From: Lama guanicoe
Lineage: Eukaryota
NCBI GenBank assembly: GCA_013239625.1
Contig: MU053810.1
Span: 877,320 to 941,319, forward strand
Reading direction: 5' to 3'
DNA length: 64,000 nt
The translations under genes and the position numbers were made by a program. Positions 6,850-63,700 of the stretch are shown one piece after another. Below the pieces are notes generated by a model that saw only the letters and a list, made by a program, of their open reading frames with translations, was not told the origin of the DNA and made no database searches. The stretch's first letter is position 1; each line of letters starts with the position of its first letter.

Positions 6850-9490
6850 AATCAACTTGCCAACTATGAGAAATAGTACGGAAACGCAACCGAAAGACCG
6901 GACAGCGACGTGAGGGGTAGAGCTGGGAGTGGGACTTAAGGTTTTCAGACAGTTTGGGGCTCCCACAGTAAAGGTCCAGAAAAACATATGGTACTAATGG
7001 TTGCTGAAGACAGGCAGTGAGGACACTGTTGAGCATGGCTGGGTGTTTTTGAAACCCAGGAAGACTGGAAAATGTGTGAGATGATGGGATGGGGCTGTGC
7101 TGGAGGGGCTCTTTCTGAGGCCCCATCCCCTTCCAGCAGGAATTACGAAATCCCCAACACTTTCTCCCTCCAGGGGGTTTGATCCCCCATGGCCACCACT
7201 AACAGCATCATCGTGCTGGATGATGATGATGAAGACGAAGCAGCTGCTCAGCCAGGGCCCTCCCACCCACCCCCGAATCTGGCCTCACCCGAGGCAGAAG
7301 CCCCTGGCTCCTCCCAGCCCCATGTGGCCAGAAGAAGCAGTAGTTCGGGTGGCAAGAAATGCTACAGGTTGGAGAATGAGAAGCTGTTTAAAGAGTTCCT
7401 TGAACTGTGTAAGACGCAGACAGCAGACCACCTGGAGGTGATCCCTTTCCTCTATAACCAGCAGCAGCGTGCCCACTCTCTGCTTCTGGCCTCAGCGGAG
7501 TTCTGCAACATCCTCTCTCAGGTCCTCTCTCGGGCTCAGAGCCGACCAGCTAAGCTTTATGTCTACATTAATGAGCTCTGCACTGTCCTCAAGGCCCACT
7601 CAGCCAAGAAGCAGCTGAATCTGGCCCCTGCTGCCGCCACCTCTAGTGGGCCCTCTGGGAATAACCCTCCCACAGACTCCTCGGACCCCACAAATGCTGA
7701 GACCACTGCCTCTGAGGCCCCAAGGACCCGTGCTTCCCGGCGGCAGATCCAGCGCTTGGAGCAGCTGCTAGCACTCTATGTAGCGGAGATCCGGCGGCTG
7801 CAGGAAAAGGAGCTGGATCTCTCAGAACTGGACGACCCAGACTCCACTTACCTGCAGGAGGCAAGGTTGAAGCGTAAGCTGATCCGCCTCTTTGGGCGGC
7901 TGTGTGAGCTGAAAGACTGCTCTTCACTGCCAGGTTGGGTCGTAGAGCAGCGCATCCCCTACCGTGGTACCCGCTACCCAGAGGTGAACAGGCACACTGA
8001 GCAGCTCATCAACAAACCAGGGCTTGACACCTTCCCTGACCATGGAGATGTGCTGCGGGCCGTAGAGAAGGCATCTGCTCGGCACAGTCCTGGCCTCCCC
8101 TGACAGCAGCTTCAGCTGATGGCTCAGGATGCCTTCCGAGATGTGGGCATCAGGTTACAGGAGCGTTGCCACCTTGATCTCATCTACAACTTTGGCTGTC
8201 ACCTCACAGATGACTACAGGCCAGACATTGATCCCACACTGTCAGATCCTGTCCTCGCCCAGCACCTGCGGGAGAACCGGAGCTTGGCTATGAGCCGTCT
8301 GGATGAGGTCATCTCTAAATATGCAATGAAGCAAGACCAGAGTGAGGAGGGCGAGAGACAGAAGAGAAGAGCCCAGCTCCCCCAAGCCACCTCTTCCCAC
8401 TCTGTAGATCCCCCCAAAGCCTCCTTGGATTCTGGTGAGGGCCCTAGTGGGATGGCATCCCAGGAATGCCCTACCACCTCCAAGGCTGAGAAAGATGATG
8501 AAGAAAATGAGGAAAGTGAGGAGGAGGAGGAAGCAGGTAAGGATGGAGATAAGAGCCCCATGTCCCCGCTACAGATCTCCACTGAAAAGAACCTGGAACC
8601 TAGCAAAGGGATCAGCAGGTCTTCAGGGGAGCAGCAAAACAAAAGACTTGCAGTGTCACCATCTTCACTGTCGGAAGAGCCCCCAGCCCTCTCCAGCACA
8701 GATGCTGAAAGCAGTGGAGAACACCTCGAGGAGTTGCCCCTGGAGGAAGAGAGCCCTATGTCTCAGCTCTTCGAGCTACAGATTGAAGCCTTGCTCCTGG
8801 ATACTACCCCTTCTCCTGAGAAGAGGGATGCTTCCTCTTCCAGGAAGCAATCAGAGGAACCCCTCACCACTGTTTTGGAGAATGGAGCAGCCATGGTCAC
8901 CTCCACTTCCTTCAATGGAGGTGTCTCTCCTCACACCTGGCGAGATGCCGGTCCTCCCCACAAGAAATCTCGGATGGAGAAGCAAACAGAAGCAGGGCCA
9001 TTAAGAAATAGCCATGTGGAAAGGCAAAGGGCATTGCGTGGGAAGAACGGGAAGGAGACATGTACGCTGCCCAGCCCACCTTCCCCCTTGGCTTCCACGG
9101 CTCCTGTTGCTGATTCCTCAGGGAGGGTGGACTCTCCTAGCCATGGCCTGGTGACCAGCTCCCTCTGCAGTCCATTTCCACCCTGCTGTCCCAAACCCCC
9201 CAATCACAACCCTCCAGGCCTGGTACTTATGAGATGAGTGTGGCCACACAGTGCGATCCAGAGGAGATCATCGTGCTCTCAGATTCTGATTAGCTGCCTC
9301 CCCCTCCTCCCTGCCTCCAAAATGTTTTGGAATAGTATTTGGAGGATGGTGGGAAGCAGACGACAGAGGAAGGGATGGACTGAGCTAAACTCCTTTTGGT
9401 GGTTTCTTTTTTTTTAAAAAAAAAGGCTTAAGTTTTACACAGAAACATTAATAAACAATAAAGTTCTTTTCTTAGTGTTAAAAAAAAGAA
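6850..9490 (+). pseudogene. DAXX: DAXX processed pseudogene (death domain-associated protein 6)
   Basis: Intronless CDS 7189-9293 from MATTNSIIVLDDDD to ...CDPEEIIVLSDSD*. Nonsense TGA at 8101-8103 (probably from CGA), frameshift near 9180, AATAAA at 9450 and 9457, A-tail at 9480-9487. 5' boundary uncertain. Confidence 0.95.
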
Positions 9491-10321: not shown

Positions 10322-10608
10322 AGCGGGAAGCTTATAAATGCGGGGTGAAGGAGTAGCTCGATCAAAGTATTATCTTTCAAACCAAACCAAAACACAACAA
10401 ACAGCAAACATAAACCAAGTCAAGTCCCCCCACCCCAGAATCAACATTCACTTAGGACATACCAGTATCTTCTTATCTTATCCTGTACTTCTATGAGAAA
10501 CACCTATTTTAACACTGCTGACTTCTTATTTTTAAGGAAGTTATTTATCATTCTAAACTACTTTCTTTTGAACACCTTTAGATTTTTGGGTACTTTTAAG
10601 TTATTATA

Positions 10609-10716
10609 AGCTCAGTGGTAGAGCACATGCTTAGCACGCACAAGGTCCTGGGTTCAATCCCCAGTACCACCATTAAATGAATTAATAAACCTAATTATCT
10701 CCCCCACTTAAAAAAA
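10609..10716 (+). mobile_element. tRNA-derived SINE (Vic-1-like, camelid)
   Basis: A box AGCTCAGTGGTAGAG, B box GGTTCAATCCC, A-tail, 11-bp TSD AAGTTATTATA (10598-10608 and 10717-10727). Confidence 0.9.
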
Positions 10717-11743: not shown

Positions 11744-12362
11744 TGGTCTGAAGCCACTTTCTTGTGGAAGACATGAAAATCTGCTTGGTGGAATTTTAGA
11801 GAGAGGATACTAAGTGAGCTCTGTCTCTGTGATTTTTGTTTTCTTTTAAACTTGATTATTCTGCAATTTAAAAATTCTCTAATAGCTCATCTTGAGTTTG
11901 GCTTTTTATGGCAACAAAACAAATTTATCTAATCCTGCACTTACTTATGTAACCCTGAGACCCACTCAAGACTATAAGCATCTTAAGAACAGAACTGATT
12001 TACTTCATTTCTGTGTTCTCAGTGCACAGTGTAGTGCCCATCACTAAACAGATGATAGGTATTTTAATTGGAGCATCAAGTATTTCAACATTTCTAGGCT
12101 GCTTTAAGTACAATAAAAATTCTGAAAAGCTTGAGAAAAGAAAAGTGCTCAGTGGCTCCTATTTCTACAATAAAGAGCCTACTAGTCAATGTTTTTCTTG
12201 CCTTTGGAAACATTTTTATTGCTGCAGTACAAAAAAAAAAGTTTCTGGACTGAAACCTTTTATTCAGGGTTTCCAGGAAATCAAAGACATAGACCAGGAT
12301 AGGTTTATTTATATAAAGGAATATCAAATATGGTGTCTGGAGCAGTAAAATTGAATTTGGAG

Positions 12363-15300
12363 ATGTCTTCAGGGCCAGTGACCCAGGCTATGTGCGTTTC
12401 TTCAGGGTCAGTCACCGAGGCCAAAGATGTGACTTCAGGGCCAATAACCCAGGTCCAGGGTGTGCGTTCAGCAACAGAGACCCAGGCCCAGGGTATGCCA
12501 TCTAAGAAAGTAACCGAGGCCCAGGCTGTGATTTCATGCCCAGTGACATAGGCCCAAGGTTGCCTTCAGGGCCAGTGACCCAAGTCCAGGGTGTGCCTTC
12601 AGTGCCAGTGACCCAGGCCAAGAGTGTGCTCTCAGGACCACTGACCCAGGCCCAGGGTGCTACTTCAGGACCAGTGACCCAGGTCAAATGTGTGTTCAGG
12701 GCAAGTGACCCAGGCCAAGTGACCCAGGCCAGGGTTTGCCTTCAGTGCCAGAGACACAGGCCCAGGGTGTTTTTTCGGGGCCAGTGACCCAGGCCAAGTG
12801 AGCATCTTCTGCACCAGCGATCCAGGCCTAGAGAGCGCCTTCAGTGCTACTGACCAAAGCCCAGTGTGTGCCTTCTTTACCAACGACCCGGGTCCAGGGT
12901 GTGCCTTCAGCGCTAGTAACTCAGGGCCAGGGTGCACCTGTGTGCAAGCCACCCAGGCACTGGTTGTGACTTCAGAGCCACTGATCCAGATCAAGGGTGG
13001 GACTTCAGCGCCACTGACCCAGGAAAATCACGTGTGTTCTGAGCCAGTGACCCAGACCAAGGATGTGACTTCCATGCGAGTGACCCAACCCCAGGGTGGG
13101 CATTAACAAACAAAAGCCGAGGCCCAGGTTGTGCCCTCAGCACCAGTGACCCAGGCCAGGGTTTGCCTTCAGTGCCAGTGACACAGGCCCAGGGTGTTTT
13201 TTCGGGGCCAGTGACCCAGGCCAAGTGTGAGTCTTCAGGTCCAGTGACCCAGGTCAAGGGTGTAACTTCAGGACCACTACTAAAGGCCAAGCATGGGCCT
13301 TCAGGGCTAGTGACCCAGGCCGAGGTTGTGACTATGGGGCCAGTGACACAGTCCCAGGGTGTGCCTTCAGCGCCAGTGACCCAAGCTCAATGTGTGCCTT
13401 AGGGGCCACTGACCAAAGCCCAGATGTGCCTTCAGGCCAGACACCCAGCCCTAAGGTGTGTCTTCAGGACCAGTGACCTAGGCTGTGTGTGTTTCTTCAG
13501 GGTCAAGACCCAGACCAAGGGTGTCCGTTAGGCATCAGTGACTCATGCCTAGGGTGTGCCTTCTACGAAAGTGACTGAGGTTCAGGGTGTGCTTTCATCT
13601 CCAGTGACACAGGCCAAGGGTGTGTCTTCAGCGCCAGTGACCCAAGTCCAGGGTGTGTCTTCAGCGCCAGTGATCCAGGCCCATGGTGTGTCTTCAGGGA
13701 CAGTGACTCAGGCCAATGGTGTGACTTGAGGGCCAGTGACCTAGGCCAAGAGTGTGTCTTCAGGGCCAGTGACCCAGGCCCAGGGTGCTAATTCAGTGCC
13801 AGTGATTGAGGCATAAATTGTGCCTTCTGCATCACAGACACAGGACCATGGGGTACCTTCAGGGCTAGTGACCCAACCCACAGTTTGTCATCAAGGCCAG
13901 TGACCCAGCCCAGGGTGTTTCTTCATGGCCATCGACCCAGGCAGAGGGTGTGTCTTCAGGGCCAGTCACCAAGGACAAGTGTGTGTCTTCAGTGCTAATG
14001 ACCCAGGTCAAATGTGTGCCTCATGACCAGGGACCCAGGCCCAGGGTGTGCCCTCTGCACCAGTGACCCAGGCCCAGTGTGTGTCCTCTGCACCAGGGAC
14101 CCAGGCCCAGGGTAAGGCTTCTGCACCAGTGACCCAGGCCCAGGTTGTTTGTTCGGGGCCAGTGACCCAGGCCAAGAGTGTACCTTGAGGACCAGTTATC
14201 CTGGTCCAGGGTGTGACTTCAGAGCCAGTGACCCAGGTAAATGGTAAGACTTCAGCACCTGTGACCCAGGCCCATGGTGTGCCTTCCAGGCTAGTGACCA
14301 AAGCCCAGTATGTGCCTTCTTTACCAGTGACTCAGGTCCAGCGTGCGCCTTCAGCATCAATGACTCAGGGCCAGGGTGTACCTTTAGCGCCAGTCACCAG
14401 GGTAAGGCTTCTGTGCCAGTGACCAAGGCCCAGGGTGTTTTTTCAGGGCCAGTGATCCACGATAAGTGTGTGTCTTCAGGGACAAGGACCCAGGTCAAGG
14501 GTGTGACTTTAGGGCCACTAACCTAGGCCAAGAATGTGCCTTCAGGGCCAGTGACACAGTCCCAGGGTGTACCTTTGGCACCAGTGACTGAAGCCCAGAT
14601 GTGCCTTCAGGCCACACACCCAGGCCCAGGGTGCGCCTTCAGGGCAAAACCAGGTCCAGGGTGTGCCTTCAGTTGCAGTCAACCAGGCCCAGGGTGTGCC
14701 TTCAGTTGCAGTCAACCAGGCCCAGGGTGTGCCTTCGGGGCCAGTGACAGAAGCCCAGATGTGCCTTCAGGCCAGAAACCCAGGCCTAGTGTATGTCTTC
14801 AGGGCCAGTGACCCAGGCTAAGTGAGTTTCTTCAGAGTCAGTGGCCCAGGACAAGTATGTGTTCCAGGGCCAGTGATCCAGGCCCAGGCTGTGTCTTCAG
14901 GCCCAGTGACCCAGGCCCAGGGTGCTAATTCAGGGCCAGATTCCTAGATCAAGTGTGTGTCTTCAGGGCCAGTGTCACAGGCCCAGTTTTGTCGTCGGTG
15001 CCAGTGAACCAGATCCAGGGTATGCCTTCAGCTCTAGTGACCCAACTGCAGCGTGTGCCTTCTGCCCCAGTGATGCAGGCCCAGGGTGTGCCTTCAGCGC
15101 CAGTGACAAACGGCCAGGGTGTGGCTTCAGGACCAGTGACCCAGGTTCAGGGTGTGCCTTCAGCACAAATGACTCAGGGCCAGGGTATGTCTTCATGGCC
15201 ACTGACCAAGGCCCAGGGTGTGTCTTTAGGGCCAGTGACCCAAGCCTAGTGTGTGTCTTCAGGACCAGTTACCCTGGTCCAGGGTATGACTTCAGGGCCA

Positions 15301-16183
15301 GTGACCCAGGCCAAGGGTGTGACTTTGGCACCAGTGACCAAAGCCCAGATGTGCCTCAAGCCAGACACCCAGGCCCAGGGTGTGTCTTCAAGGCCATTGA
15401 CCTGGGCTAAGTGTGTTTCTTCAGGGCCAATGACGCAGGCCCAGGGTGTGCCTTCTGCACCAGTCACCCAGGCCCAGGGTAAGGCTTCTGTGTCAGTGAC
15501 CCAGGCCCAGGCTCTTTTTTCTGGGCCAGTGACCCACAACAAGTGTGTGTCTTCAGGGCCAGTGACTCAGACCAAGAGTGCGTCTTCACGGTCAGTGACC
15601 CAGGCCCAGGGTTGCAACCAGTGCCAGTGATCCAGGCCCGGGGTATGCCCTCAGCCCCAGTGACACAAGCACAGCATGTCACTTCTGTGCCAGTGACCCA
15701 GGCCAAGTGTGTGTTCAGGGCCACTGACCCAAGCCAAGTGTGTGTCTTCAGGGCCAGTGACCCAATCTAAGCGTGTTTCTTCAGGGACACTGACCCAGGC
15801 CAAGGGTATGCGTGCAGCACCAGTGACATGGTCCCTCGGTGTTTCTTCTAGGAAAGTGACCGAGGCCCTGGGACTGCTTTCATGTCATGTCACACAGTCC
15901 CAGGGTGTGCCTTCAGGGGCAGTGACCCAGGCCCCCGGGTTCTTCTGAAGGCCAGTGATGCAGGCCCAGGGGATGGCTTCTGTGCCAGTGACCCAGGCCC
16001 AGGCTGTTTTTTTAGGGGACAATAACCCAAGCCAAGAGTGTGTCTTCAGGGCCAGTGACCAAGGCCAAGAGTGCGTCTTCTTGGCCAGTGACCCAGGCCC
16101 ACGGGGTCTTCTCAAGGCCAGTGACCTAGGGGATGGCTTCTGCACCAATGACCCAGGCCCAGGGTTGCCATCAGCGCCAGTGA
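12363..16183 (+). repeat. 33-bp tandem repeat array, left arm of palindrome (~115 degenerate units)
   Basis: Recurring CCAGTGACCCAGGCCCAGGGTGTGCCTTCAGGG with ~33-nt period; broken ORFs translate to PVTQAQGVPSG repeats. Confidence 0.95.
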
Positions 16184-17258
16184 ACCCCGCCGCCCCCTCA
16201 CCGGGTGGTCCCACGATCTTAAAGTCGCGGGTGAAGGTGTCCCAATGCCAGAAAGACCTTAGGTGGCACCTGGGAAGGACCTGGAAGGACTGCACGGGGC
16301 GGAGACCGACGCAAGGGGCCAGTAGGTAGCGCCAGAAAGCAGACAGGACCGTTGGGCGAGCCGGGCCCCTGGCGAGCCAGGCCGGGAGAGCGGAGAAGTT
16401 TCTCCCCAACTTCCCGACTCTGAGCTGGCGAGGGCGGGTGGGAGTGGCGCGCCCGGGCGCCGGGGCCGGGGCCGGCCGCCTTCGCCCGCGGGTTGCGTGG
16501 AGGGGGCGGCGAGCGGAGGCGAGGCCCGCGGGCCCTCTCCCTCCTCCACCTCCAAGCCCCGGGTACCCGGCCGCGGAGACGACTGCACAGCCGACCGCGC
16601 AGTAGCTTCTTCACCGGGAGTGAACTCCCGGGCTCTGCTCCTTCGCGGGCAGGGGCTCGGAGGGACTTCCGGTTTGCGAGCCGGGCGCGCGCGAGGGTAA
16701 ACGGAAGTCGCGCGCGCGACCCGACGGCAAACCGGAAGTCTCGCGCGCGCCCGGCTCACAAACCGGAATCCCGTCGCGCCCCTCCCTGCGAAGGAGCAGG
16801 GCCCGGGAGTTCATTCCCGGTGAAGAAGCTACTGCGCAGTCGGGTGTCCGGGGTTTACGAGATGGAGGAGGGAGAGGGACCGCGGGTCTCGCCTGCGCTC
16901 GCCGGCCCCTCCACGCAACCCGCGGGCGGAGGCGGCCGACCCGGGCCCCGGCCCCCGGCCCCGCAGCGCTAGGCCCCGGCGCCCGGACGCGCCACTCCCA
17001 CCCGCCCCCGCCAGCTTAGAGTCGGGAAGTTGGGGAGAAACTTCTCCGCCCTCCCGGCCTGGCTCGCCAGGAGCCCGGCTCGCCCGATGGACCTGTCTGC
17101 TTTCTGGCGCTACCTGCTGGCCCCCTGCGTCGGTCTCCGCCCCGTGCAGTCCTTCCAGGTCCCACTCAGGTACCGCCTAAGGTCCTCTTAGCGTTGGGAC
17201 ACTCCGACCCGCGACTTTAAGGTCGTGGGACCACCCGGTGAGGGGGCGACGAGATTCA
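16182..17258. promoter_or_regulatory. CpG island made of a head-to-head duplication; putative bidirectional promoter
   Basis: Very GC- and CpG-rich. 16182-16695 is the reverse complement of 16740-17258 (roughly 85-95% by eye). ETS sites ACTTCCGGT 16665, ACGGAAGT 16701, ACCGGAAGT 16731, ACCGGAAT 16762; CGCG runs; GC boxes. Confidence 0.8.
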
Positions 17259-20200
17259 CTGGCACTGATGGCAACCCTGGGCCTGGGTCACTGGTGGAGA
17301 AGCCATCCCCTCGGCCTGGGTCACTGGCACTGATTGTAACCCTGGGGCTGGGTTACTGGCCGTGAAGACGCACTCTTGGCCTTGGTCACTGGCCCTGAAG
17401 ACACACACTTGGCTTAGGTCACTGGCCCTGAAAAAACAGCCTGGGCCTGGATCAGTGGCGCAGAAGCCATCCCCTGGGCCTGGGTCACTGCACTGATTAA
17501 ACCCCTGGCCCTGGGTAACAGGCCGTGAAGACGCACTCTTGGGCTGGGTTACTGGGCCTGATACACAGCCTGGGCCTGGGTCAATGGCCTTGAAGATGCA
17601 CTCTTGGCCTTGGTCACTGGCCCTAAAGACACACACTTGGCTTAGGTCACTGGCCCCGAAAAAAACAGCCTGGGCCTGGGTCACTGGTGCAGAGCCATCC
17701 CCTGGGCCTGCATCAGTGGCCTTGGGAAGACCCCGGGGGCCTTGGTCAATGGCCCTGAAGACGCACTACTCACCTTGGTCAGTGGCCCTAAAGACACACA
17801 CTTGGCTGGGTCAGTGGCCCTAGAGACACATCCTTGGCTTGGGTCACTGGCCCCGAAAAAACTGCCTGGGCCTGGATCAGTGGCGCAGAAGCCTTCCCCT
17901 GGGCCTGGGTCACTGGCCTTCAGAAGAACCCAGGGGCCTGGGTCACTGCCCCTGAAGGCACACCCTGGTACTGTGTGACATGACATGAAAGCAGTCCCAG
18001 GGCCTCGGTCACTTTCCTAGAAGGAACAGCGAGGGACCATGTCACTGGTGCTGCATGCATACCCTTGGCCTGGGTCAGTGACCCTGAAGAAACACGCTTA
18101 GAATGGGTCAGTGACCCTGAAGAAACACGCTTAGATTGGGTCACTGGCCCTGAAGACAGACACTTGGCTTGGGTCAGTGGCCCTGAACACACACTTGGCC
18201 TGGGTCACTGGCACAGAAGTGACATGCTGTGCTTGTGTCACTGGGGCTGAGGGCATACCCTGGGCCTGGGTCACTGGCAATGATTGCAACCCTGAGGTTG
18301 GGTCCCTCGCTGTGAAGACACACTTCGTCTGGATCACTGGCCCTGATACACACTCTTGGCCTGGGTCACTGGCCCTGAAGATGAAGTTTTGGCCTTGGTC
18401 ACTGGCCCTAAAGACATATGCTTGGCTTTGGTCAGTGGCCCTAGACACACACTTTTTGGCTTGGGTCACTGGCCTCGAAAAAACAGCCTGGGACTGGGTC
18501 ACTGGTGGAGAAGCCATCCCCTCGGCCTGGGTCACTGGCACTGATTGCAACCCTGGGCCTGGGTCACACTGGCCGTGAAGACGTACTCTTGGCCTGGGTC
18601 ACTGGCCCTGATACATACGCTGGGCCTGGGTCACTGGCCGTGAAGACACACTCGTGGCCTTGGTCACTGGCCCTAAATATGCATACTAGGCTTTGGTCAG
18701 TTGTCCAAGTGACACACCTTTTGCTTCGGTCACTGGCCCAAAAAAAATAGCCTGGGTCTGTGTCACTGGTACAGAAACCATCCCCTGTGCCTGGGTCACT
18801 GGCCTTGAGAAGACCCCGGGGTCCTGGGTCACTGCCCCTGAAGGCACACCCTGGTACTCTGTGATATGACATGAAAGCAGTCCCAGGGCCTCAGTCACTT
18901 TTCTAGAAGGAACACCGAGGGACCGTGTCACTGGTGCTGCATGAATACCCTTGGCCTGGGTCAGTGACCCTGAAGAAACACACTTAGACTGGGTCACTGG
19001 CTGTAAAGACACACACTTGGCTTGGGTCAGTGGCCCTGATCACCCACTTGGCCTGGGTCACTGGCACAGTAACACGATGTGCTTGTGTCACTGGGCTGAG
19101 GGTATACTCTGGGCCTGGGTCACTGGCACTGATTGCAAACCTGGACCTGGGTCACTGGCCGTGAAGACACACTCTTGGCCTGGGTGACTGGGCCTGATAC
19201 ACATCCTGGGCCTGGGTCACTTGCCTTGAAGACATAGTCTTGGCTTTGGTCAATAGCCCTAAAGACACACACTTGGCTTTGTTCAGTGGCCCTAGAGACA
19301 AATCTTGGCTGGGTCACTGGCCCTGAAGACACACGCTTGGCTTTGGTCAGTGGATATAGAGACACACTCTTGGTTTGGGTCACTGGCTCTGAGAAAACAG
19401 CCTGGGCCTTGATCACTGGTGCAGAAGCCATCCCCTGGGCCTGAGTCACTGGCCCTGATACACACCCTGGGCCTGGGTCAATGGCCTTGAAGACGCACTC
19501 TTGGCCTTGGTCACTGGCCCTAAAGATACGCACTTGGCTTAGGTCACTGGCCCCGAAAACACAGCCTGGGCCTGGGTCACTGGTGCAGAAGCCATCCCTC
19601 TGGGCCTGAGTCACTGCCCTGGAGAACACCCTGGAGGCCTGGGTCAGTGACCCATAAGGCATACCCTGGGACTGTGTCACTGATGCTGTACGCACACCCT
19701 TGGCCTGGGTCAGTGACTCTGAAGAAACACATAGACTGGGTCAGTGGCCCTGAACATACACTTGGCCTGGGTCACAGGCACAGAAGTGACATGCTTTGTT
19801 TATGTCACTGAATCTGGGAGCACACCCCGGGTTTGGGTCACTGGCCGTGAAGACACACTTGTGGCCTTGGTTACTGGCCCTAAATACACATACTAGGCTT
19901 TGGTCAGTTGTCCAAGTGACACACTCTTAACTTGGGTCACTGGCCCCGAAAAAACAGCCTGGGCCTGGATCAATGGCGCAGAAGCCATACCCTGGGCCTG
20001 GGTCACTGGCACTGATTACACCCCTGGGCCTGGGTCACTGGCCCTGAAGACATACCCTGGGTCTTGGTATCTGGCCTGAAGTCACATCTGGGCTTCGGTC
20101 ACTGGCTCCAAAAGCACACCCTGGGCTTGGGTGACTGGCACTGATGTCAAACCCTGGACTTGCTTTGTGGTCCTGAAGTCATACCCTTGGTCTGTGTCAC

Positions 20201-22947
20201 TGGACATGAAAGCACACCCTGGGCCTCGGTGACTTTCGTAAAAGGCAACTCCTCGGCCTGTGTCACTGGTGCTGAATGCATACCCTTTGCCAGGGTCACT
20301 GGTCGTGAAGACACACCCTGGGCCTGAGTGTCTAGCTGAAAGCACATCTGGGCTTCAGTCACTGGCACTGAAGGCACACCCTGGGACTCTGTCACTGGCC
20401 CTTATGGCACATTCTTGGTCTGGATTAGTGGCTCGAAAGTCACACAGTTGATCTGGGTCCCTGGCCCTGAAGACACACACTTGTCGTGGGTCACTGGCCC
20501 TGAAAAAACACCCTGGGCCTGGGTCACTGTTGCAAAAGACATATCCTGGGCCTGGGTCATTGGTGCAGAAGGCACACTCTGGGTCTAGGTCACTGGCACT
20601 GAAGGCAAACCCTAGGTCACTGGCGCTGAGGGCACAACCTGGGCCTCGGCTTTTGTTTGTTAATGCCCACCCTGGGGTTGGGTCACTTGCGTAGAAGTCA
20701 AATCCTTGGTCTGGGTCACTGGCTCAGAACACACGTGATTTTCCTGGGTCAGTGGCCCTGAAGTCCCACCCTGGGCCTGGGTGACTGGTGCTGAAGGTCC
20801 ACCCTGGCCGTGAGTCATTGGTGCTGAAGGCACACCCTGGACCTGAGTCACTGGTAAAGAAGGCACACGCTGGGCTCTGGTCACTAGCGCAGAAGGCACA
20901 CCCTAGGCCTGGGTCGCTGACTCTGAAGTCATATCATTTACCTAGGTCACTGGCCATGAATACACAGCCAGGGCCTGTGTCACTGGCCTTGAAGACACAC
21001 CCTTGGCCTTGATCACTGGCCCTGGAGACACACACTTGGCCTGTGTCACTGGCACTGAAGACACTCTTGGCCTTGGTCACTGGCCCTGAAGACACTCTTG
21101 GCCTTGGTCACTGGCCCTGGAGACACACACTTGGCCTGTGTCACTGGCACTGAAGACACTCTTGGCCTTGGTCACTGGCCCTGAAGACACTCTTGGCCTT
21201 GGTCACTGGCCCTGAAGACACACCCTGGGCCTTTGCCTCTCTCCTTGAAGACAGGCCCTGCTCCTGGGTGACTGGCCCTGGAACACATACTTGGCCTGTG
21301 CTACTAGCCCTGAATTAGCACCCTAGGCCTGGGTCTATGGCCCTGATGACACACTCTTGGCATGGGTCACTGGCCCTGAAATCACACCATTGGCCAGGGT
21401 CACTGGCCCTGAAGGCACACACTGGGCCTGGGTCACTTGCCCTGAGCACACATTTTGCCTGGGTCACTGGTCCTGAATTAGCACCCTGGGCCTGGGTCAC
21501 TGGTGCTGAAGGCACACTCTTGGCCTTGGTCACTGACCTTGAAGACACATGATCTGCCTGTGTCAATGACCATGAAGACACAGTCTGGGCCTGTGCCACT
21601 GGCCTTGAGAAGAAACTGTGGGCCTAGGTCACTGACCCTGAAGGCATACCATGGTCCTGAGTCACTGGCGAAGAAGGCACATCCTGGGCCTGGGTCACTG
21701 GGACTGAAGGCACAACCTGGGCTTGTGTCATTGGCGCAGAAGGCACGTGCTGGGCTTGGTTCACTGGCGCTGAGCACACTCTGGGCCTGGGTCACTAGGC
21801 CTGAAGACGCACCCTGCACCTGCGTCACTGGTGCTGATGGCAACCCTGAACCTGGGTCACAGGCCCTAGAACACAGAGTTGGCCTGGGTCACTGGCTCTA
21901 AATTAGCACCCTGGGCCTGGGTCGCTCGCCTTGAAGACAAACCGTGGCCCAGTGTCACTGGTCCTGAAGGCACACCATGGTCCTGGGTCACTGGCACAGA
22001 ACGCACAACTTGGGCCTGTGTCACTGGCTTTGAAAACACACCCTTGTTCTGGTTCAGTGGCCCTGAATACACACCCTGGACCTATTTCTCTGACCATCAA
22101 GGCATACCCTAGGCCTGGGTCACTGGCCCTGAAGGCACACCCTGGGCCAGAGTCACTGGTGCTGAGGGAACAACCTGGACCTGGGTCACTCGTCCTGAAG
22201 GCACCTCCTGGGCCGGGGTCATTGGCCATGAAGATACACCATTGGCCTGGGTCACGGAGGCTGAGGACGCACACTGGGCCTGGATCCCTGCCGCTCAAGG
22301 CACACCGTGGTCCTGGGTCACTGGTCCTAAGGCAAAATCTGGCCCTGGGTCATTGGCCCCAAAGATACACCCTGGGCCTGTATCACTGGTCCTGAAGGCA
22401 CACCCTGGGCCTTGGTTACTGGCCCTGAAGGCACACACATGGCCTGGCTCACTGGCCCTGAAGACACACCATTGGCCTGGGTCATGGGCCCTGAAGACAC
22501 ACAATGGGCCTGGGTCACCGTAACTGAGCGCACAACGGGGCCTAGGTCACTGGCGCTCAAGGCACACTCTTGGCCTAGGTCATTGGTGCTCAAAGCACAC
22601 CCTGATCCTGGGTCACTGGCCCTAAGGCAAAATCTGGGCCTGGGTCCCTGGCCCTGAAGACTCATACTTGGCCTGGGTCACCTGCCCCGGAAAAGCACCC
22701 TGGGCCTGGGTCACTGGTGCAGAAGGCACACCCTGGGTTTGCATCACTGGTTCTAAAGGCAAACCATGGTCTGGGTCACTGGCACTGAGAGCACAACCTC
22801 GGCCTCTGTCTTTGTCTGTGAACACCCACCCTAGGACTTGTTTACTGCCGTAGAAATCACAGTCTTGGCCTGGGTCACTCACGCAGAACGCACATGTTTG
22901 TCATGGGTCAGTGGCCCTGAAGTCCCACCCTTAGCCTGGGTCAGTGA
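17257..22947 (-). repeat. 33-bp tandem repeat array, right arm of palindrome (~170 degenerate units)
   Basis: Recurring CCCTGGGCCTGGGTCACTGGCCCTGAAG, the reverse complement of the left-arm unit; variant blocks are shared with the left arm. Confidence 0.95.
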
Positions 22948-23818
22948 CCAATAGGCACATGAAAAGAAGCTCAGTATCGGTGATTATCAGAGAAATGCAA
23001 ATCAAAACTACATTGAGGTATCACCACACACGGGTATGAATGTCCATCATTAAAAAGTCTACAAACCATAAATGCTGGAGAGGGTGTGGAGAAAAGGGAA
23101 TCCTCCTGTACTATTGGTGGGAATGTAGTTTGGTGCAGCCATTATGGGAAACAGTGTGGAAATTTCTTAAACAACTGAAATTAGAGTTACCCTATGATCC
23201 AGCAATCCCACTCCTGGGTATGTATTCAGAGGGAACTCTTAATCAAAAACATATATTCACCCCAATGTTCATAGCAGCACTATATACAATAGGCAAGACA
23301 TGGAAGCAACCTAAATGTCCATCAACAGATGACTGGATAAAGAAGTTGTGATGTATTTATACAACGGAATACAACTCAGACATAAAAAGTTATAAAATAA
23401 TGACATTTGCAGCAACATGGATGGACCTGGAGATTGTCATCCTATGTGTAAAGTAAGCCGGAAAGAGAAAGACAAACACCATTGATATCATTTATATGTG
23501 GAATCTAAAATAATGACACAAATGAACTTATTTCCAAAAAGAAATAGACTCACAGAGATAGAACAAATTACCAGGAGGGAAAGGGGGTGAGAAGGGATAA
23601 ATTGGGAGTTCACTGTTTGCATATACAAACTACTATATATAAAATAAACAACAATGTCCCACTGTATAGCACAGGGAACTATAGTCAATATCTTGTAATA
23701 GCCTATACTATAAAAAGAAGGTGAAAAGAATATATATAGGTATAACTGAAACACTATGCTGTACACCAGAAGTTAACACAGCATTGTAAACCGATTATAC
23801 TTCAATTAAGAAAAAAAT
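22948..23818 (+). mobile_element. L1 3' end (ORF2 C-terminus + 3'UTR)
   Basis: ORF 23040-23351 reads [39 protein letters not shown]-rich tail; abuts the array with no visible TSD. Confidence 0.92.
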
Positions 23819-24108
23819 AGAGAGAGAGAAACTGAATTAGACCAAAGTCTTAACTGAGAACCATGCTCCTAGCTGATTCCCCAGAGGTAAAAGGTACCTC
23901 TCAGAACACATGTGATACCTGTGCTGGTGGGGGGGCACGTGCGCGCATGTCCATGAACAAGTCAAATTGTCCCAATAAACTGAGTCCTGTAGGATGGGCA
24001 CGCATTTCATTCGCCTTCAAGAAGTGTTTCTTGTATTAACTGAATCCTGGGGGGATGGGCGCCAGGGACAAATCTGGGGCTGGGTAGGCTATGGGTCAAA
24101 CCACATGC

Positions 24109-24189
24109 CCACCAACGGAAGCTCCACCAACGGAAGCTCGGCCAACGGAAGCTCCAACATCTGGGCACGAGCAGCTGGAGCTCCAACGG
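24109..24189 (+). promoter_or_regulatory. 15-bp triple repeat with CAACGG (MYB-type) motifs upstream of PTCHD3
   Basis: CCACCAACGGAAGCT twice plus CGGCCAACGGAAGCT (24109-24153) and a fourth CAACGG at 24184. Confidence 0.45.
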
Positions 24190-24232
24190 ACTCCCTTGGA
24201 ATTCCTCCAGGAAACTGTCAGGAGGGGTGGAG

Positions 24233-31422
<7,190 letters not shown>

Positions 31423-32451: not shown

Positions 32452-32699
32452 TTCAGGCCAGACACCAAGGTCCAGGGTGTTTTTCCGGCCCGGTGACCCA
32501 GGATAAGTGTGGTTCTTCAGGGTCAGTGACCTAGGCCAAGGATGTGCGTTCCGTACCAATGACACAGGCCCAGGCTGTGCCTTAAGGGCCAGTGACCCAG
32601 GACCAGGGTGTGTCTTCAGGGCCAGTGTCCAGGCCCAGGGTGTGTCTTTAAGGCCAGTGACCCAGGCCCAGGGTTGCCATTAGGGTGAGTAATCCAGGA
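32452..32699 (+). repeat. outlying mini-array of the same 33-bp repeat (~7 units)
   Basis: GGGCCAGTGACCCAGGACCAGGGTGTGTCTTCAGGG and similar units, same orientation as the left arm. Confidence 0.92.
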
Positions 32700-33249
32700 T
32701 CCAAAGATTCCCAGATCTGTGACTGCAGAAACAGCTTTCTGTGTGAAGCCTGATCCCATGGTCAGGTCCTTCCGTGTGAGCAGTGACTATAACCAGGGTG
32801 CAGCAGGTTTTAAGTTCCATAGACAGCTAATGGGCAGGAAATGTGGACTGGAAAACTCTCCGAGGACAAAGTAAATGCCTCATTCTACAAGAAAGTTCAA
32901 CAATTATCATTGATAGAAGGTGGTTGGAGTTATGCGAACGGCAGTGAAGGATTTCATGAATGAATCCCATTTACAACTCAGAATCATCGAAGTTTTTCCT
33001 GTAGTGGAACAACCGGTACAATGAACAAAAATAACTTGTGGAGTATAAAGAAAAGGTAATTTTATTTTTTTATCTAATGGTCCTTTGTATAAAGGCTAAT
33101 GACTAATACATAGACACATTTATTTGGTGGGTCTGATTTGTCTTGTGCCCTGGGGGGCCTTATCCGATAACTTTGAAGAAATAAAAATCCTACCATCACT
33201 TAGGTCACAAATTTCTAAAATTAAAAATGTCTTGTGCCTATTGGATTTA

Positions 33250-36138: not shown

Positions 36139-38188
36139 GGGTTTTTTTTTAGTACTTTTTTATTGAGTTATAATCATTTTACGATGTTGTGTCAAATTCC
36201 AGTGTAGAGCACAATTTTTCAGTTATATGTGAACATGCGTATATTCACTGTCACATTTTTCTCTGTGAGCTACCACAAGATCTTGTATATATTTCCCTGT
36301 GCTATACAGTATAATCTTGTTTATCTATTCACATTTTGAAATCCCAATCTCTCTCTTCCTACTCCCCGCCCCCTTGGCAACCACAAGTTTGTACTCTACG
36401 TCTGTGAGTCTGTTTCTGTTTTGTATTTATGGTTTTTGTTTTTGTTTTTTTTAGATCCCACATATGAGCCATCTCATATGGTATTTTTCTTTCTCATTCT
36501 GACTTGCTTCACTTACAATGACATTCTCCAGGAACATCCATGCTGCTGCAAATGGTGTTATGTTGTCAGTTTTGATGGCTGAATAGTATTCCATTGTATA
36601 AATATGCCACATCGTCTTTATCCAGTCATCTGTCGATGGACATTTAGTCTGTTTCCATGTCTTGGCTATTGTAAATAGTGCTGCTAGGAACATTGGGGTG
36701 CAGGTGTCATTTTGAAGTAGGGTTCCTTCTGGATATATGCCCAGGAGCAGGATTCCTGGGTCATATGGTAAGTCTGTTCCTAGTCTTTTGAGGAATCTCC
36801 ATACTGTTTTCCACAGTGGCTGCACCAAACTGCATTCCCACCAGCAGTGTAGGAGGGTTCCCCTTTCTCCACAGCCTCTCCAGCATTTGTCATATGTGAA
36901 TTTCTGAGTGATGGCCATTCTGACTGGTGTGAGGTGATACCTCATTGTAGTTTTGATGTGCATTTCTCTGATAACTAGTGATATTGAGCATTTTTTTCAT
37001 GTGCCTATTGATCATTTGTATTTCTTCATTAGAGAATTGCTTTTTAGGTCTTTTGTCCTTTTTTGGTTTGGGTTGTTTGTTTTTTTCTTATTAAGTCGTA
37101 TGAGCTGCTTATATATCCTGGAGATCAAGCCTTTGCTGGTTTCATTTGCAAAATTTTCTCCCATTCTGTAGGTTGTCTTTTTGTTTTACTTATGGTTTCC
37201 TTTGCTGTGCAGAAGCTTGTAAGTTTCATTAAGTCCCATTTTTTTATTCTTGCTTTTATTTCTATTGTTTGTGTAGACTGTCCTAGGAGAACATTTTTGA
37301 GAGGTAAAAGTATCACTGTATGCTGATGACATGTTACTATATATAGAAAACTCTAAAAGCTCCACACAAAAACTACTAGAGGTGATCAAAGAATTCAGCA
37401 AGGTAGCAGGTTACAAGATTAATGTTCAAAAATCAATTGCATGTCTTTACTCTAACGATGAATCAACAGAAAAAGAAAGTAAAGAAGCAATCCCTTTAAA
37501 ATAGCACCCAAAGTAATAAAATACCTAGGAATAAATCTAACCAAGGAGGTGAAAGAATTATACACATAAAACTATAAACCATTGATGAAGGAAATTAAAA
37601 AAGACTTTAAAAAATGGAAAGGTATCCCATGCTCCTGGATTGGAAGAATCAATATTGTTAAAATGGTCACACTGCCCAAGGCAATCAACAGATTTAATGC
37701 AATCCCTGTCAAATTACCCAGGACATATTTCACAGAACTAGAACAAATCATAATAAAATTTATATGGAACCACAAAAGACTAGAATTGCCAAAGCATTAC
37801 TGAAGAAAAAGAAAGAGGCTGGAGGAATAACTCTCCCAGACTTCAGACAATACTATAGAGCTACAGTAGTCAAGACAGCATGTTATTGATACAACAACAG
37901 ACATATAGACCAATGGAACAGAATAGAGAGCCCAGAAATGAACCCACAAACCTTTGGTCAACTCATCTTCGACAAAGGAGGCAAGAATATACAATGGAAT
38001 AAAGACAGTCTCTTCAGCAAATGGTGTTGGGAAAACTGGACAGCAGCATGTAAAACAGTGAAGCTAGAACACTTCCTTACACCAAACACAAAAATAAACT
38101 CAAAATGGATCAAAGACTTAAACATAAGTCAAGATACAGTAAACCTCCTACAAGAAAATATAGGCAAAACATTATCTGACATACATCT
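36139..38188 (-). mobile_element. 5'-inverted (twin-primed) L1 insertion
   Basis: 36139-37302 is an L1 3' end on the minus strand; 37301-38190 is the preceding ORF2 segment on the plus strand; TSD CATTGTGGT at 36130-36138 and 38189-38197. Confidence 0.9.
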
Positions 38189-39365: not shown

Positions 39366-39477
39366 GGAGGGGACTACAGCTCAAGTGGTAGAGGGTTCTG
39401 GGTTCAATCCCCAGTACCTCCTCTAAAAATTAAATAAACCTAACTACCCACCCCAACACACAAAAATAAAATAAAAA
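39366..39477 (+). mobile_element. tRNA-derived SINE (Vic-1-like), internally deleted
   Basis: AGCTCAAGTGGTAGAG..GGGTTCAATCCCCAGTACCTCC..AATAAACCTAA followed by an A-rich tail. Confidence 0.75.
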
Positions 39478-42882: not shown

Positions 42883-45619
<2,737 letters not shown>

Positions 45620-46377
45620 CCTCTTACAATTATTTTTGATGGGGGGTATCATATATTCTTACCGGGCTGGTGAAGATTGGAAGGAACTGTCAAATATGAA
45701 CACATTTGTTTTATGTTATGCATCATTATTAAGAGCATGAGAGTTGAAAGTAAATTTGGCTCTGAGAAAAATATATTATTGGTGAGGGTTAATGAACACA
45801 CCAGGCATTTTAATACAAAATTGTCATGAAAACATATACCATATGCTTGAATTAAATACTGAATTTGAAAGAAAGCTTCTTGCTGAATTTGCACTCATTT
45901 TAGATGTTGAAATTGTTTTTGTGATGTCTGTAGAATCAGTTTTTTTAGAGGATGAATTTTTCCACATTTTACACTAACTAAATGGGATTATGAATGAGCG
46001 AATTATTACAAATATTGTTGTTTTCTGAGGGAGAAAAAAGTGATATTAAATACGATAGGAAGAATATGCAAATTGCCATTTTGACCTATTGCTACAATGA
46101 AAAGAATAAAATGTGTGATATTGATAAAACAAAGTCAATTAAACAAATGTGTATTAAAGAACAATTGTTTCAAAGTAAAATAAGGTTTTCTGTCCTTTGT
46201 CATCTCTCTTCTGAGGACTATAGGCTACGTTCCTTTCTTCCTTTATTTTTATTTTCATTTTTTAAGCATAGCACAGCACATCTTACTCAGCCCATGTAGG
46301 ACATGTGTCCAGACCTCCTGGTTAATCTTACAAAGATGTCCACTAGGAAGTGTATGGAACTCATCTTCACCTACTTA

Positions 46378-61879: not shown

Positions 61880-63700
61880 TCAACTTTCTAAGTGAAGAAA
61901 TATTAGCAGCATTTCTTTTAAAATCAGCCAAAAGCTGGAATGTTCCCTTTTGCCATTATTTACAGTAACCAATTTGCTAGAGGTTTTGGCTATGCAGTAG
62001 GTCAAGAAAAAGAAATTAAAAGCATAAAGATTAGAAAGGAGGAAATCTGTTGTTGATTTTGCTTGATATAACTGTCTACATGAAAAAAATTTCAATCTAA
62101 CAACATATTACAAATTATTAGATCTAAAGGCAAGGTTAGCAAGATGACTGGATGCAAGGTCAGTATAAACAAATGAATTATGTCTTCATTCACCAGCAAA
62201 TAGTTTTTTAAGCACCTTTTATAGTAGCAACAAAAACTGTAAAATTCATAAAAATGAATCTAACAAAAGGTGCAAGATAGATAGTTATAAAACTTCATAA
62301 AACATATTGAAGAAGCCTCCAAAAATGGAGAGTTATGCCAAATTCAGGAATGAGGAGGCAATATCATTAATAATTCAGTTTTTCCCAATCTGTTTACAGA
62401 GTCCATGCAAGGCCAGTAAATATCTCAGCAGGGTTATTCATGGAGTTTGACAAACTGATTTTCTCATTTGTAAGGGAGAACAAAGGGTCAAGAAAAGTCA
62501 AAACACTACAAAAAAAAAAAAGAAGAATGAAGATGCACTTGCCTTACCGTATGTCAAGACTCTTTTAGAGCTATAGTAACTCTGACACTGTGGTGTTCGT
62601 GCAGACATGAGCAAACTGAATAATGAAAAAAAAATTGACTAGAAATAGAACCTGCATATTTGGAACTTGATATTTCGCAGAGATGACAAAGCAGATCCAT
62701 AGAGGAGGAGACACTATTTCATAAAGGAGGTTAGGACTGGTTATGATATGAAAACATAGAATAAATTGAGTCCTCACATTGCACAGGATTAAAAATTCAA
62801 CCCCTAAAGGTTGAAGACAGAAATATGAAAAGGGAAGTGTTAAAACTGTTAGGAGGAAATCTAAGGAAATGCTCTTCTGGCTTTGATGTTAGAAAGGCTT
62901 TGTTTTTTGCTTTCTCATTTCTTTCTTTTGAGGGGGGGAACTAGATTTGTTTGTTTGTTTGTTTTTTAATGAAGATGCTGGGACTGAACCCAGGACCTCA
63001 TGCATGCTAAGCATGTGCTCTATCACTTGAGCTATAGCCTCCGCTTCTTAAGACAAAGAAAAAGCCAACCAGCAGAGAAATCATAGGTACATTTGTTACA
63101 TTAAAATTAAGAATTTCTTTTGACTAAAAACACCTTGAAAAGCCTGAAAAGGGTGGTTACTCCTAGGAAAAAACATTTGTATTATGAATACCTGACTAAG
63201 TACTAGTAACCAGATTCATTAACTACTACAAATCAGAAGAAAAACACAAAACAACAGAACATATAAATGGGAAAAAAAGTATGAATAACTATTTTGCAGG
63301 AGAAACTCATGCTGGGAACAGTTGTGAAGGCTGACAGTTGCCAGTGCTAAAGATACGGATTCGCTGGTTGCTTTATATATTACTGGTGGCTTATATGCTG
63401 TTAGTAAAACTACTTAAAAATATTGTCTGTTCTATTTTAATCACTTACCATATAATGCAGCAACTCCAATCCTAACTATATATTCAAAAGAAAATTTTAC
63501 TCACATGCTCCAGGAGAAATACAAAGTAATCTTCTTATATTTAAGAGCAAAAAATTGGGGAAAAAACTAATTTTTCATCAAATAGTGACAAATTGTGTTT
63601 ATCACTGCTTCCACTAGTGAATATTTCAGCTATAAATAACAGTGTAGATAAAATCTGTAGTATAGTTTTGAAAGAAAAAAATCAAGTCTCAGAAAACTAG
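61880..63700 (+). mobile_element. old degraded L1 ORF2/3' region
   Basis: CAAGAAAAAGAAATTAAAAGCATAAAGATTAGAAAGGA and AGCAAGATGACTGGATGCAAGGTCAGTATA ORF2-like motifs; many stops; boundaries approximate. Confidence 0.65.
62922..63042 (-). mobile_element. tRNA-derived SINE (Vic-1-like)
   Basis: GGACTGAACCCAGGACCTCATGCATGCTAAGCATGTGCTCTATCACTTGAGCTATA is the reverse complement of the SINE head. Confidence 0.85.

Follow-up and report, generated by a model that had tools for sequence, protein, structure and literature searches.

Between two arrays of 33-bp repeats, the guanaco (Lama guanicoe) genome carries a short CpG-rich island, which raises the question of whether this island is a promoter that fires in both directions and, if so, how it came to be two-sided. 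An earlier note on the 64,000-nucleotide stretch of DNA analyzed here (the window) had proposed a symmetry axis formed by a dense core of ETS and CGCG motifs facing both ways. Comparison of the two halves of the island identified a left arm (16191..16695, minus strand) and a right arm (16740..17250, plus strand) that are alike at 474 of 523 ungapped columns, with a longest exact run of 37, and are therefore a real, old duplication. The arms differ by 49 substitutions (37 transitions and 12 transversions) and by indels of 24 and 28 bp, and each runs outward into a 33-bp minisatellite, the core being the middle of an old inverted duplication. Beyond the arrays, a within-window comparison detected no homology between the two flanks. 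Since assemblies are error-prone at palindromes with repeat arrays, a fold-back chimera had to be considered; the 49 substitutions and the indels exclude an assembly fold-back, and an independent dromedary assembly has the same layout, leaving an artefact with a vanishingly small probability.

The arms end at 16695 and 16740, which places the axis at 16717.5, within an asymmetric 44-bp spacer (16696..16739, plus strand). This spacer contains two plus-strand ETS sites (16701 and 16732) as well as a perfect 14-bp palindrome (16707-16720) that is its own reverse complement and consists mostly of a self-complementary (CG)5 run. The palindrome had been read as the mark of the symmetry axis, but its center (16713.5) lies 4 bp away from it. 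The 22-mer said to read outward on each side is indeed present at 16597..16618 (minus strand) and 16816..16837 (plus strand); as a part of the duplicated arms, it is a by-product of their duplication. Similarly mirrored are the best 5' splice-site-like 9-mers of the two arms, which sit at the island/array junctions at 16196..16204 (minus strand, donor at 16201) and 17235..17243 (plus strand, donor at 17238), the left one reaching 5/7 on a simple consensus score; they may be used as splice sites.

Within the core, CGGAA occurs at 16667 (minus strand) and at 16702, 16733 and 16764 (plus strand), so that the four ETS sites reported earlier are all found in place, although the outermost right-facing one (16762..16769, plus strand; CCGGAAT) is damaged, being one base short of its mirror partner, the intact left-facing site CCGGAAGT at 16665..16672 (minus strand). 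The right-facing sites belong to tandem 31-bp units of an ETS site plus a (CG)n run (16702..16768, plus strand; 2.2 copies by TRF, CGGAA spacing of 31 and 31), and the inner end of the left arm holds a (CG)n run at 16685..16695 that amounts to half a unit with its ETS site missing. The core is consequently not equally symmetric in both directions, as had been supposed: one intact ETS site faces left, whereas two intact sites and the damaged one face right.

The whole 64 kb has only three strict ETS 8-mers and only three runs of at least three CG, and all of them lie inside this core. In 2000 dinucleotide shuffles of 16191-17250, four CGGAA within 110 bp arose with P=0.01, and neither three CGGAAGT nor the (CG)n runs arose once (0/2000 each); with a single arm plus the spacer, which avoids double counting, the values were P=0.068 for CGGAA and P=0.0015 for CGGAAGT. 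The three (CG)n runs thus stand as described, but their assignment to the CGCG motif does not: the island has no match to TMTCGCGANA, and the best match to the published CGCG element/BANP motif TCTCGCGAGA, at 16739, has two mismatches, for which reason we rejected this identity. The runs share with that element a CGCG core within ~50 bp of the predicted starts, but they consist of (CG)4-5 and match it in one flank only; Mahpour et al. (2018, PMC6192621) report that the flanks matter and that some variants lose activity. By its motifs, the core is of the ETS/GABP type. It also lacks TATAWA, i.e., it is TATA-less.

The entire island (16191-17250, 1060 bp) has a GC content of 0.72 and a CpG observed/expected ratio of 0.92, against 0.14 and 0.17 in the two arrays. 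The aligned arms contain 61 CpGs, of which 49 survive in both, 8 are decayed and 4 are otherwise changed, in agreement with the claim that CpGs are kept in both copies while the arrays are CpG-poor. The CpGs in the arms are not hypermutable, as the arms mismatch at 13/123 CpG sites and at 36/400 other sites (p=0.6). In array paralogues at ~8% divergence, 6 of 8 CpGs are decayed (p=0.0008 vs. the island), and at 2.7% divergence 3 of 6; L1 pairs, which agree yet are a poor control, kept 0/9, 0/8 and 0/5. Retention between the arms and decay in the arrays therefore suggest that the island is unmethylated in the germline and the arrays are methylated. Such an island, as read from substitutions, is the firmest support for the promoter proposed in the earlier note.

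We then analyzed whether the flanking DNA encodes anything. The left array (12364..16190, minus strand; ~106-116 units) and the right array (17256..22950, plus strand; ~174 units) are both read outward and are therefore opposite in sense, and their units are ~78% alike to the consensus. The possibility that they encode 11-residue repeats was rejected, because stops are as frequent as predicted column by column in each of the six phases and between a fifth and a quarter of the units break the frame (24/116 on the left and 43/174 on the right have lengths that are not a multiple of three). A protein search with one array frame gave no match, and at the island no protein-coding first exon was found, as had been noted before, nor any protein family match; the arrays are likewise non-coding. 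The unit order is scrambled between the arrays outside short runs. A third fragment of the repeat (32452..32700, minus strand; ~8 units) has the orientation of the left array and no island; it lies 1 kb past PTCHD3, beside an L1-like fragment, with its best likeness (0.76) to left units 37-44.

We also considered whether the 33-bp unit could be a CpG-decayed ETS+(CG)n unit. This was not supported, since the best unit ranked only sixth among island positions; it scored 17.1 against an island mean of 8.0 (sd 4.0; P=0.02-0.04), and four other cuts of the unit were no better (P 0.04-0.86). The unit contains an imperfect inverted pair of half-sites with a 1-base spacer, presumably nuclear-receptor IR-1-like, of which 31 imperfect and 4 perfect copies occur across the arrays and none in 33000-64000. 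The literature, searched mostly outside subscription journals, yielded neither an account of this locus nor one of a 33-bp repeat in camelids. The alpaca satellites VpaSat01-20 are also camelid tandem repeats, but with monomers of 1.8-8.5 kb, and no 33-bp family was present among the satellite entries accessible in that source, with the consensus compared over its first 400 bases (PMC13751797).

A search with an array frame against 1.84 billion representatives returned 11 hits, led by the Camelus dromedarius hypothetical protein KAB1254128.1 (E 3e-33); the other 10 are unrelated low-complexity repeats (names checked for 9). The 1463 residues of KAB1254128.1 run through an array inward, island, core, island and an array outward; judged by this layout, it is a spurious gene model, an artefact of prediction across a non-coding palindrome. 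At the best axis, 38 of the 44 informative positions in the core of the model are compatible with a mirror (median 0.45 over 251 axes), as are 13/13 to 16/16 positions in four overlapping slices. The core could accommodate ETS cores at three places facing left and two facing right, besides a third, damaged one facing right, and its innermost ETS pair lies 2 nt off the axis (hand-derived); ETS compatibility alone is a loose test, passed at 27 places of the whole model, and it is the mirror test that carries weight. The window has one left-facing and three right-facing ETS units and a left arm that stops mid-unit, suggesting that this copy probably lost two inner left-facing ETS units.

The dromedary model also bears on the age of the structure. 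The 24-bp and 28-bp pieces, each missing from one window arm, are by eye kept in both dromedary arms. Of the 49 diagnostic sites, 14 could be called in both dromedary arms, in a comparison that left out codons requiring more than one change; 11 of these show a shared allele, 3 are arm-specific and none is reverse. Only 3 of 312 island sites place the two dromedary arms together and apart from those of the window, the orthology of the dromedary model being uncertain. This pattern indicates that the four arms split at about the same time, so that the duplication, or the last homogenization, may be placed near the camelid split, which according to the part of PMC13751797 used here occurred > 11 million years ago; the date is soft.

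After calibration, with three codons trimmed at each alignment break, KAB1254128.1 differs from the window by ~9-11% in an array block described below and by 15% or more in the island, and it diverges from the window more than PTCHD3 does (96% protein identity). Array words pair the first half of the model with the right arm (12 to 2, with 5 ties, among the 19 of 86 words shown; only words with at most 3 differences were compared, i.e., 19/86 and 3/50), contrary to 3 island sites that pair it with the left arm. Its last 150 residues have no match in the window, and a protein search with its island part found no match. Taken as a whole, KAB1254128.1 may be a paralogue or the product of an error-rich assembly. 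CpG decay is not strong in its arms (11/86 vs. 23/334 and 6/80 vs. 26/274).

Part of the likeness between the window arms appears to have been renewed. An array block at 15622..15957 (minus strand) is 97.3% (327/336) alike to its right copy at 17911..18279 (plus strand; one extra unit), compared with 474/523 in the island (p=7.6e-5, a generous value because the block was chosen for its likeness). The difference is 2.7% between the window arms against ~9-11% to either dromedary arm, with the same uncertainty of orthology; this closer likeness therefore points to a tract of arm-to-arm conversion, which we consider likely. Mammalian conversion palindromes likewise have inverted arms, a short spacer and a patch far more alike than its surroundings, but those covered in the cited parts of 10.1101/800185 and PMC8600007 have arms of >10 kb at >99% identity, whereas the arms here measure 4-6 kb at 78-97% and contain no coding genes.

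Despite the density of motifs, the ETS core is not better conserved than its surroundings in the arms, with likeness at 90/99 for the inner 100 columns and at 386/420 elsewhere (Fisher p=0.69). A core without extra conservation, with a damaged site and lost units, argues for weak or no purifying selection on a two-way output. These same observations, together with the lack of any protein or RNA family match, would also fit an unmethylated and nearly silent relic, in which CpG density alone protects the island and only short, unstable RNA is made, without entering the arrays. We regard this as unlikely, taking into account the three intact strict ETS sites, far above chance, the dromedary arms, which are also without strong CpG decay, and an AATAAA triplet directly past the left array.

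This triplet (12215..12309, minus strand; hexamers at 12309, 12264 and 12220) starts 55 bp past the array, and represents a candidate 3' end for a leftward RNA of ~4.3 kb. The DNA after the left array is AT-rich, and AATAAA triplets within 100 nt occur at three places in the window, one of them a TATT microsatellite. Farther left, a DAXX processed pseudogene (7183-9237, plus strand) is intronless, is interrupted by a stop codon (8101-8103) and has its polyA tail near 9480; it lies antisense to any leftward read-through from the island. A second processed pseudogene, of SANBR (KIAA1841), is located at 43434-45620 (minus strand), and its 5' end accounts for a small patch of CpG-rich sequence (45400-45620). 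Rfam searches of the window at the gathering score gave two tRNA-like matches only, both low-scoring (10600-10672 and 62970-63041), which resemble each other and 39394-39455 and are probably tRNA-derived SINEs.

The locus has the sequence features of a GABP-type bidirectional promoter, namely a CpG island without TATA, clustered strict ETS sites and CpG retention, and is probably a housekeeping-type promoter that was duplicated back-to-back along with a non-coding repeat array and fires two ways. The bidirectional CpG-island promoters treated in the cited part of Collins et al. (2007, PMC2077898) share the TATA-less island, the CCGGAAGT clusters on both strands and the divergent layout; here, unlike there, the promoter became symmetric through its own inverted duplication, paralogous sequence lies in both directions, and minisatellite arrays take the place of a gene pair. 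In that work, GABP binding accompanies bidirectional activity, tandem sites can initiate alone, and adding a single CCGGAAGTG increased reverse activity in 4 of 6 promoters; some GABP-bound promoters are active one way only, which counts against two-way firing (Collins et al., PMC2077898).

On balance, we slightly favor a GABP-type CpG-island promoter made symmetric by duplication and giving divergent non-coding RNA of doubtful function. A TATA-less island of short ETS+(CG)n units and its downstream 33-bp minisatellite would have been duplicated head-to-head, a mirror seen in the window and in the dromedary model, either before Old and New World camelids diverged or at about that time. Short duplications are described as building motif clusters at germline-open sites, with NRF1, CTCF and PRDM9 as the factors given in the relevant part of the source and GABP not named (Kaiser et al., PMC8559717). 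The mirrored core may have begun with about three ETS units per side, and loss of the inner two left units would have produced the asymmetric spacer. GABPA or a related ETS factor would bind the clustered sites and keep the island open and unmethylated in the germline, for which CpG retention is indirect evidence. Pol II would start both ways at ~30-60 bp from the outer edges of the cluster (around 16600-16640 on the left and 16790-16830 on the right), and transcription would run into the methylated arrays, yielding non-coding RNA at a low to moderate level that might be spliced from the mirrored donor-like sites (16201 and 17238). For the leftward RNA, the AATAAA cluster (12220-12309) is a possible end; the rightward RNA may stop within the L1 or shortly before it reaches PTCHD3. 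Since drift in the arms is not slower than neutral, with conversion now and then, this RNA would more likely be a by-product than something maintained by selection. In public data, eight RNA runs from two studies and one presumed RNA run hold 0.07-0.13 of the words sampled from 12300-22299, a stretch of which the island makes up 0.106, and six unlabelled runs hold 0.73-0.75; these runs provide no evidence either way on expression.

The mirror island lies 7 kb upstream of PTCHD3, on the same strand as the right-facing units, and PTCHD3 is in the path of the rightward transcript. Its coding region (24233..31422, plus strand) extends from a first coding exon at 24233-25240 to a last one at 29899-31422, which is the last long ORF of the window and has a Pfam Patched match; the predicted protein is 98.5-99.4% identical to alpaca records and ~96% to Camelus records, which marks the window as South American camelid DNA. 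Human PTCHD3 is overlapped by ICR_643, a candidate maternally marked imprint control region in the data cited from PMC9665137. Between the right array and PTCHD3 in the window, a LINE-1-like 3' end (22952..23820, plus strand) adjoins the array and matches five other copies in the window. From its sequence and an ORF at 36451-36996 we take this repeat to be L1. AATAAA hexamers 3' of the right array are found at 23643 and 23974. Just 5' of the PTCHD3 start codon, a tandem repeat with a 15-bp unit (24109-24190) contains four CAACGG hexamers (24113-24184), which we take to be MYB-like, and could be PTCHD3's own testis promoter. Three of the four hexamers continue with AAG, in the fashion of an ETS core.

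This arrangement would also allow a one-sided function, in which the right-facing units are an upstream promoter or enhancer of PTCHD3, an island exon splices from 17238 across the array and the L1 into PTCHD3, and the left arm is a passenger. The gene's strand and its distance of 7 kb, the excess of intact ETS sites on the right (two vs. one) and the donor-like 9-mer at 17235-17243 would agree with such a function. Nevertheless, the left arm keeps the same donor-like site, PTCHD3 has its own candidate promoter at 24113-24184, two AATAAA intervene, and derived changes among polarized sites number ~22 in the right arm against 13 in the left (hand count), so we judge one-sided function to be distinctly improbable.

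The mirrored donor-like sites and the left AATAAA cluster could also be viewed as the parts of a self-mirrored promoter for two paralogous, repeat-filled long RNAs, selected as lncRNAs or piRNA precursors and kept in step by conversion, that regulate PTCHD3, feed germline small RNA or, via the antisense pseudogene, act on DAXX. The antisense direction would then have been given the same donor and polyA-signal-poor repeat track as the sense direction, so that both elongate. Models for such RNAs are the repeats of Xist, Rsx and DXZ4 and the bidirectional pachytene piRNA cluster. The structure common to the dromedary, the homogenized array block, and a testis gene with two processed pseudogenes nearby are in line with this proposal. 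It is opposed by the scrambled unit order outside short blocks, by ETS cores of the housekeeping type, and by the distribution of the MYB-like hexamer (A-MYB sites being expected at the promoter of a pachytene piRNA cluster), which is absent from the core and occurs once, at 16349, in the left arm only; in addition, no literature linking Ptchd3 and piRNA clusters was found in a search that lay mostly outside subscription journals. We hold selected twin RNAs to be a rather remote prospect.

Layouts of this kind have precedents. DXZ4, DXPas34, Xist and Rsx each have a CpG-rich promoter beside tandem arrays with units of 30-35 bp or larger; the likeness is one of layout, and the window has no lncRNA match in Rfam at the gathering score. 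The palindrome described here lies beside what we take to be an autosomal gene. The structure is real, duplication of an ordinary promoter type explains it well, and its palindrome accounts for the spurious dromedary gene model.

Even now, the locus neatly illustrates how a single promoter can be made symmetric by a fold-back duplication, with a sharp, apparently unmethylated island between methylated arrays. It also constitutes a natural experiment, in which two downstream copies separable by their 49 substitutions share one core with unequal ETS sites, so that directionality could be read per arm from ordinary stranded data. It would gain in importance if stable RNA came from both arrays, or if the cassette turned out to predate the camelids.
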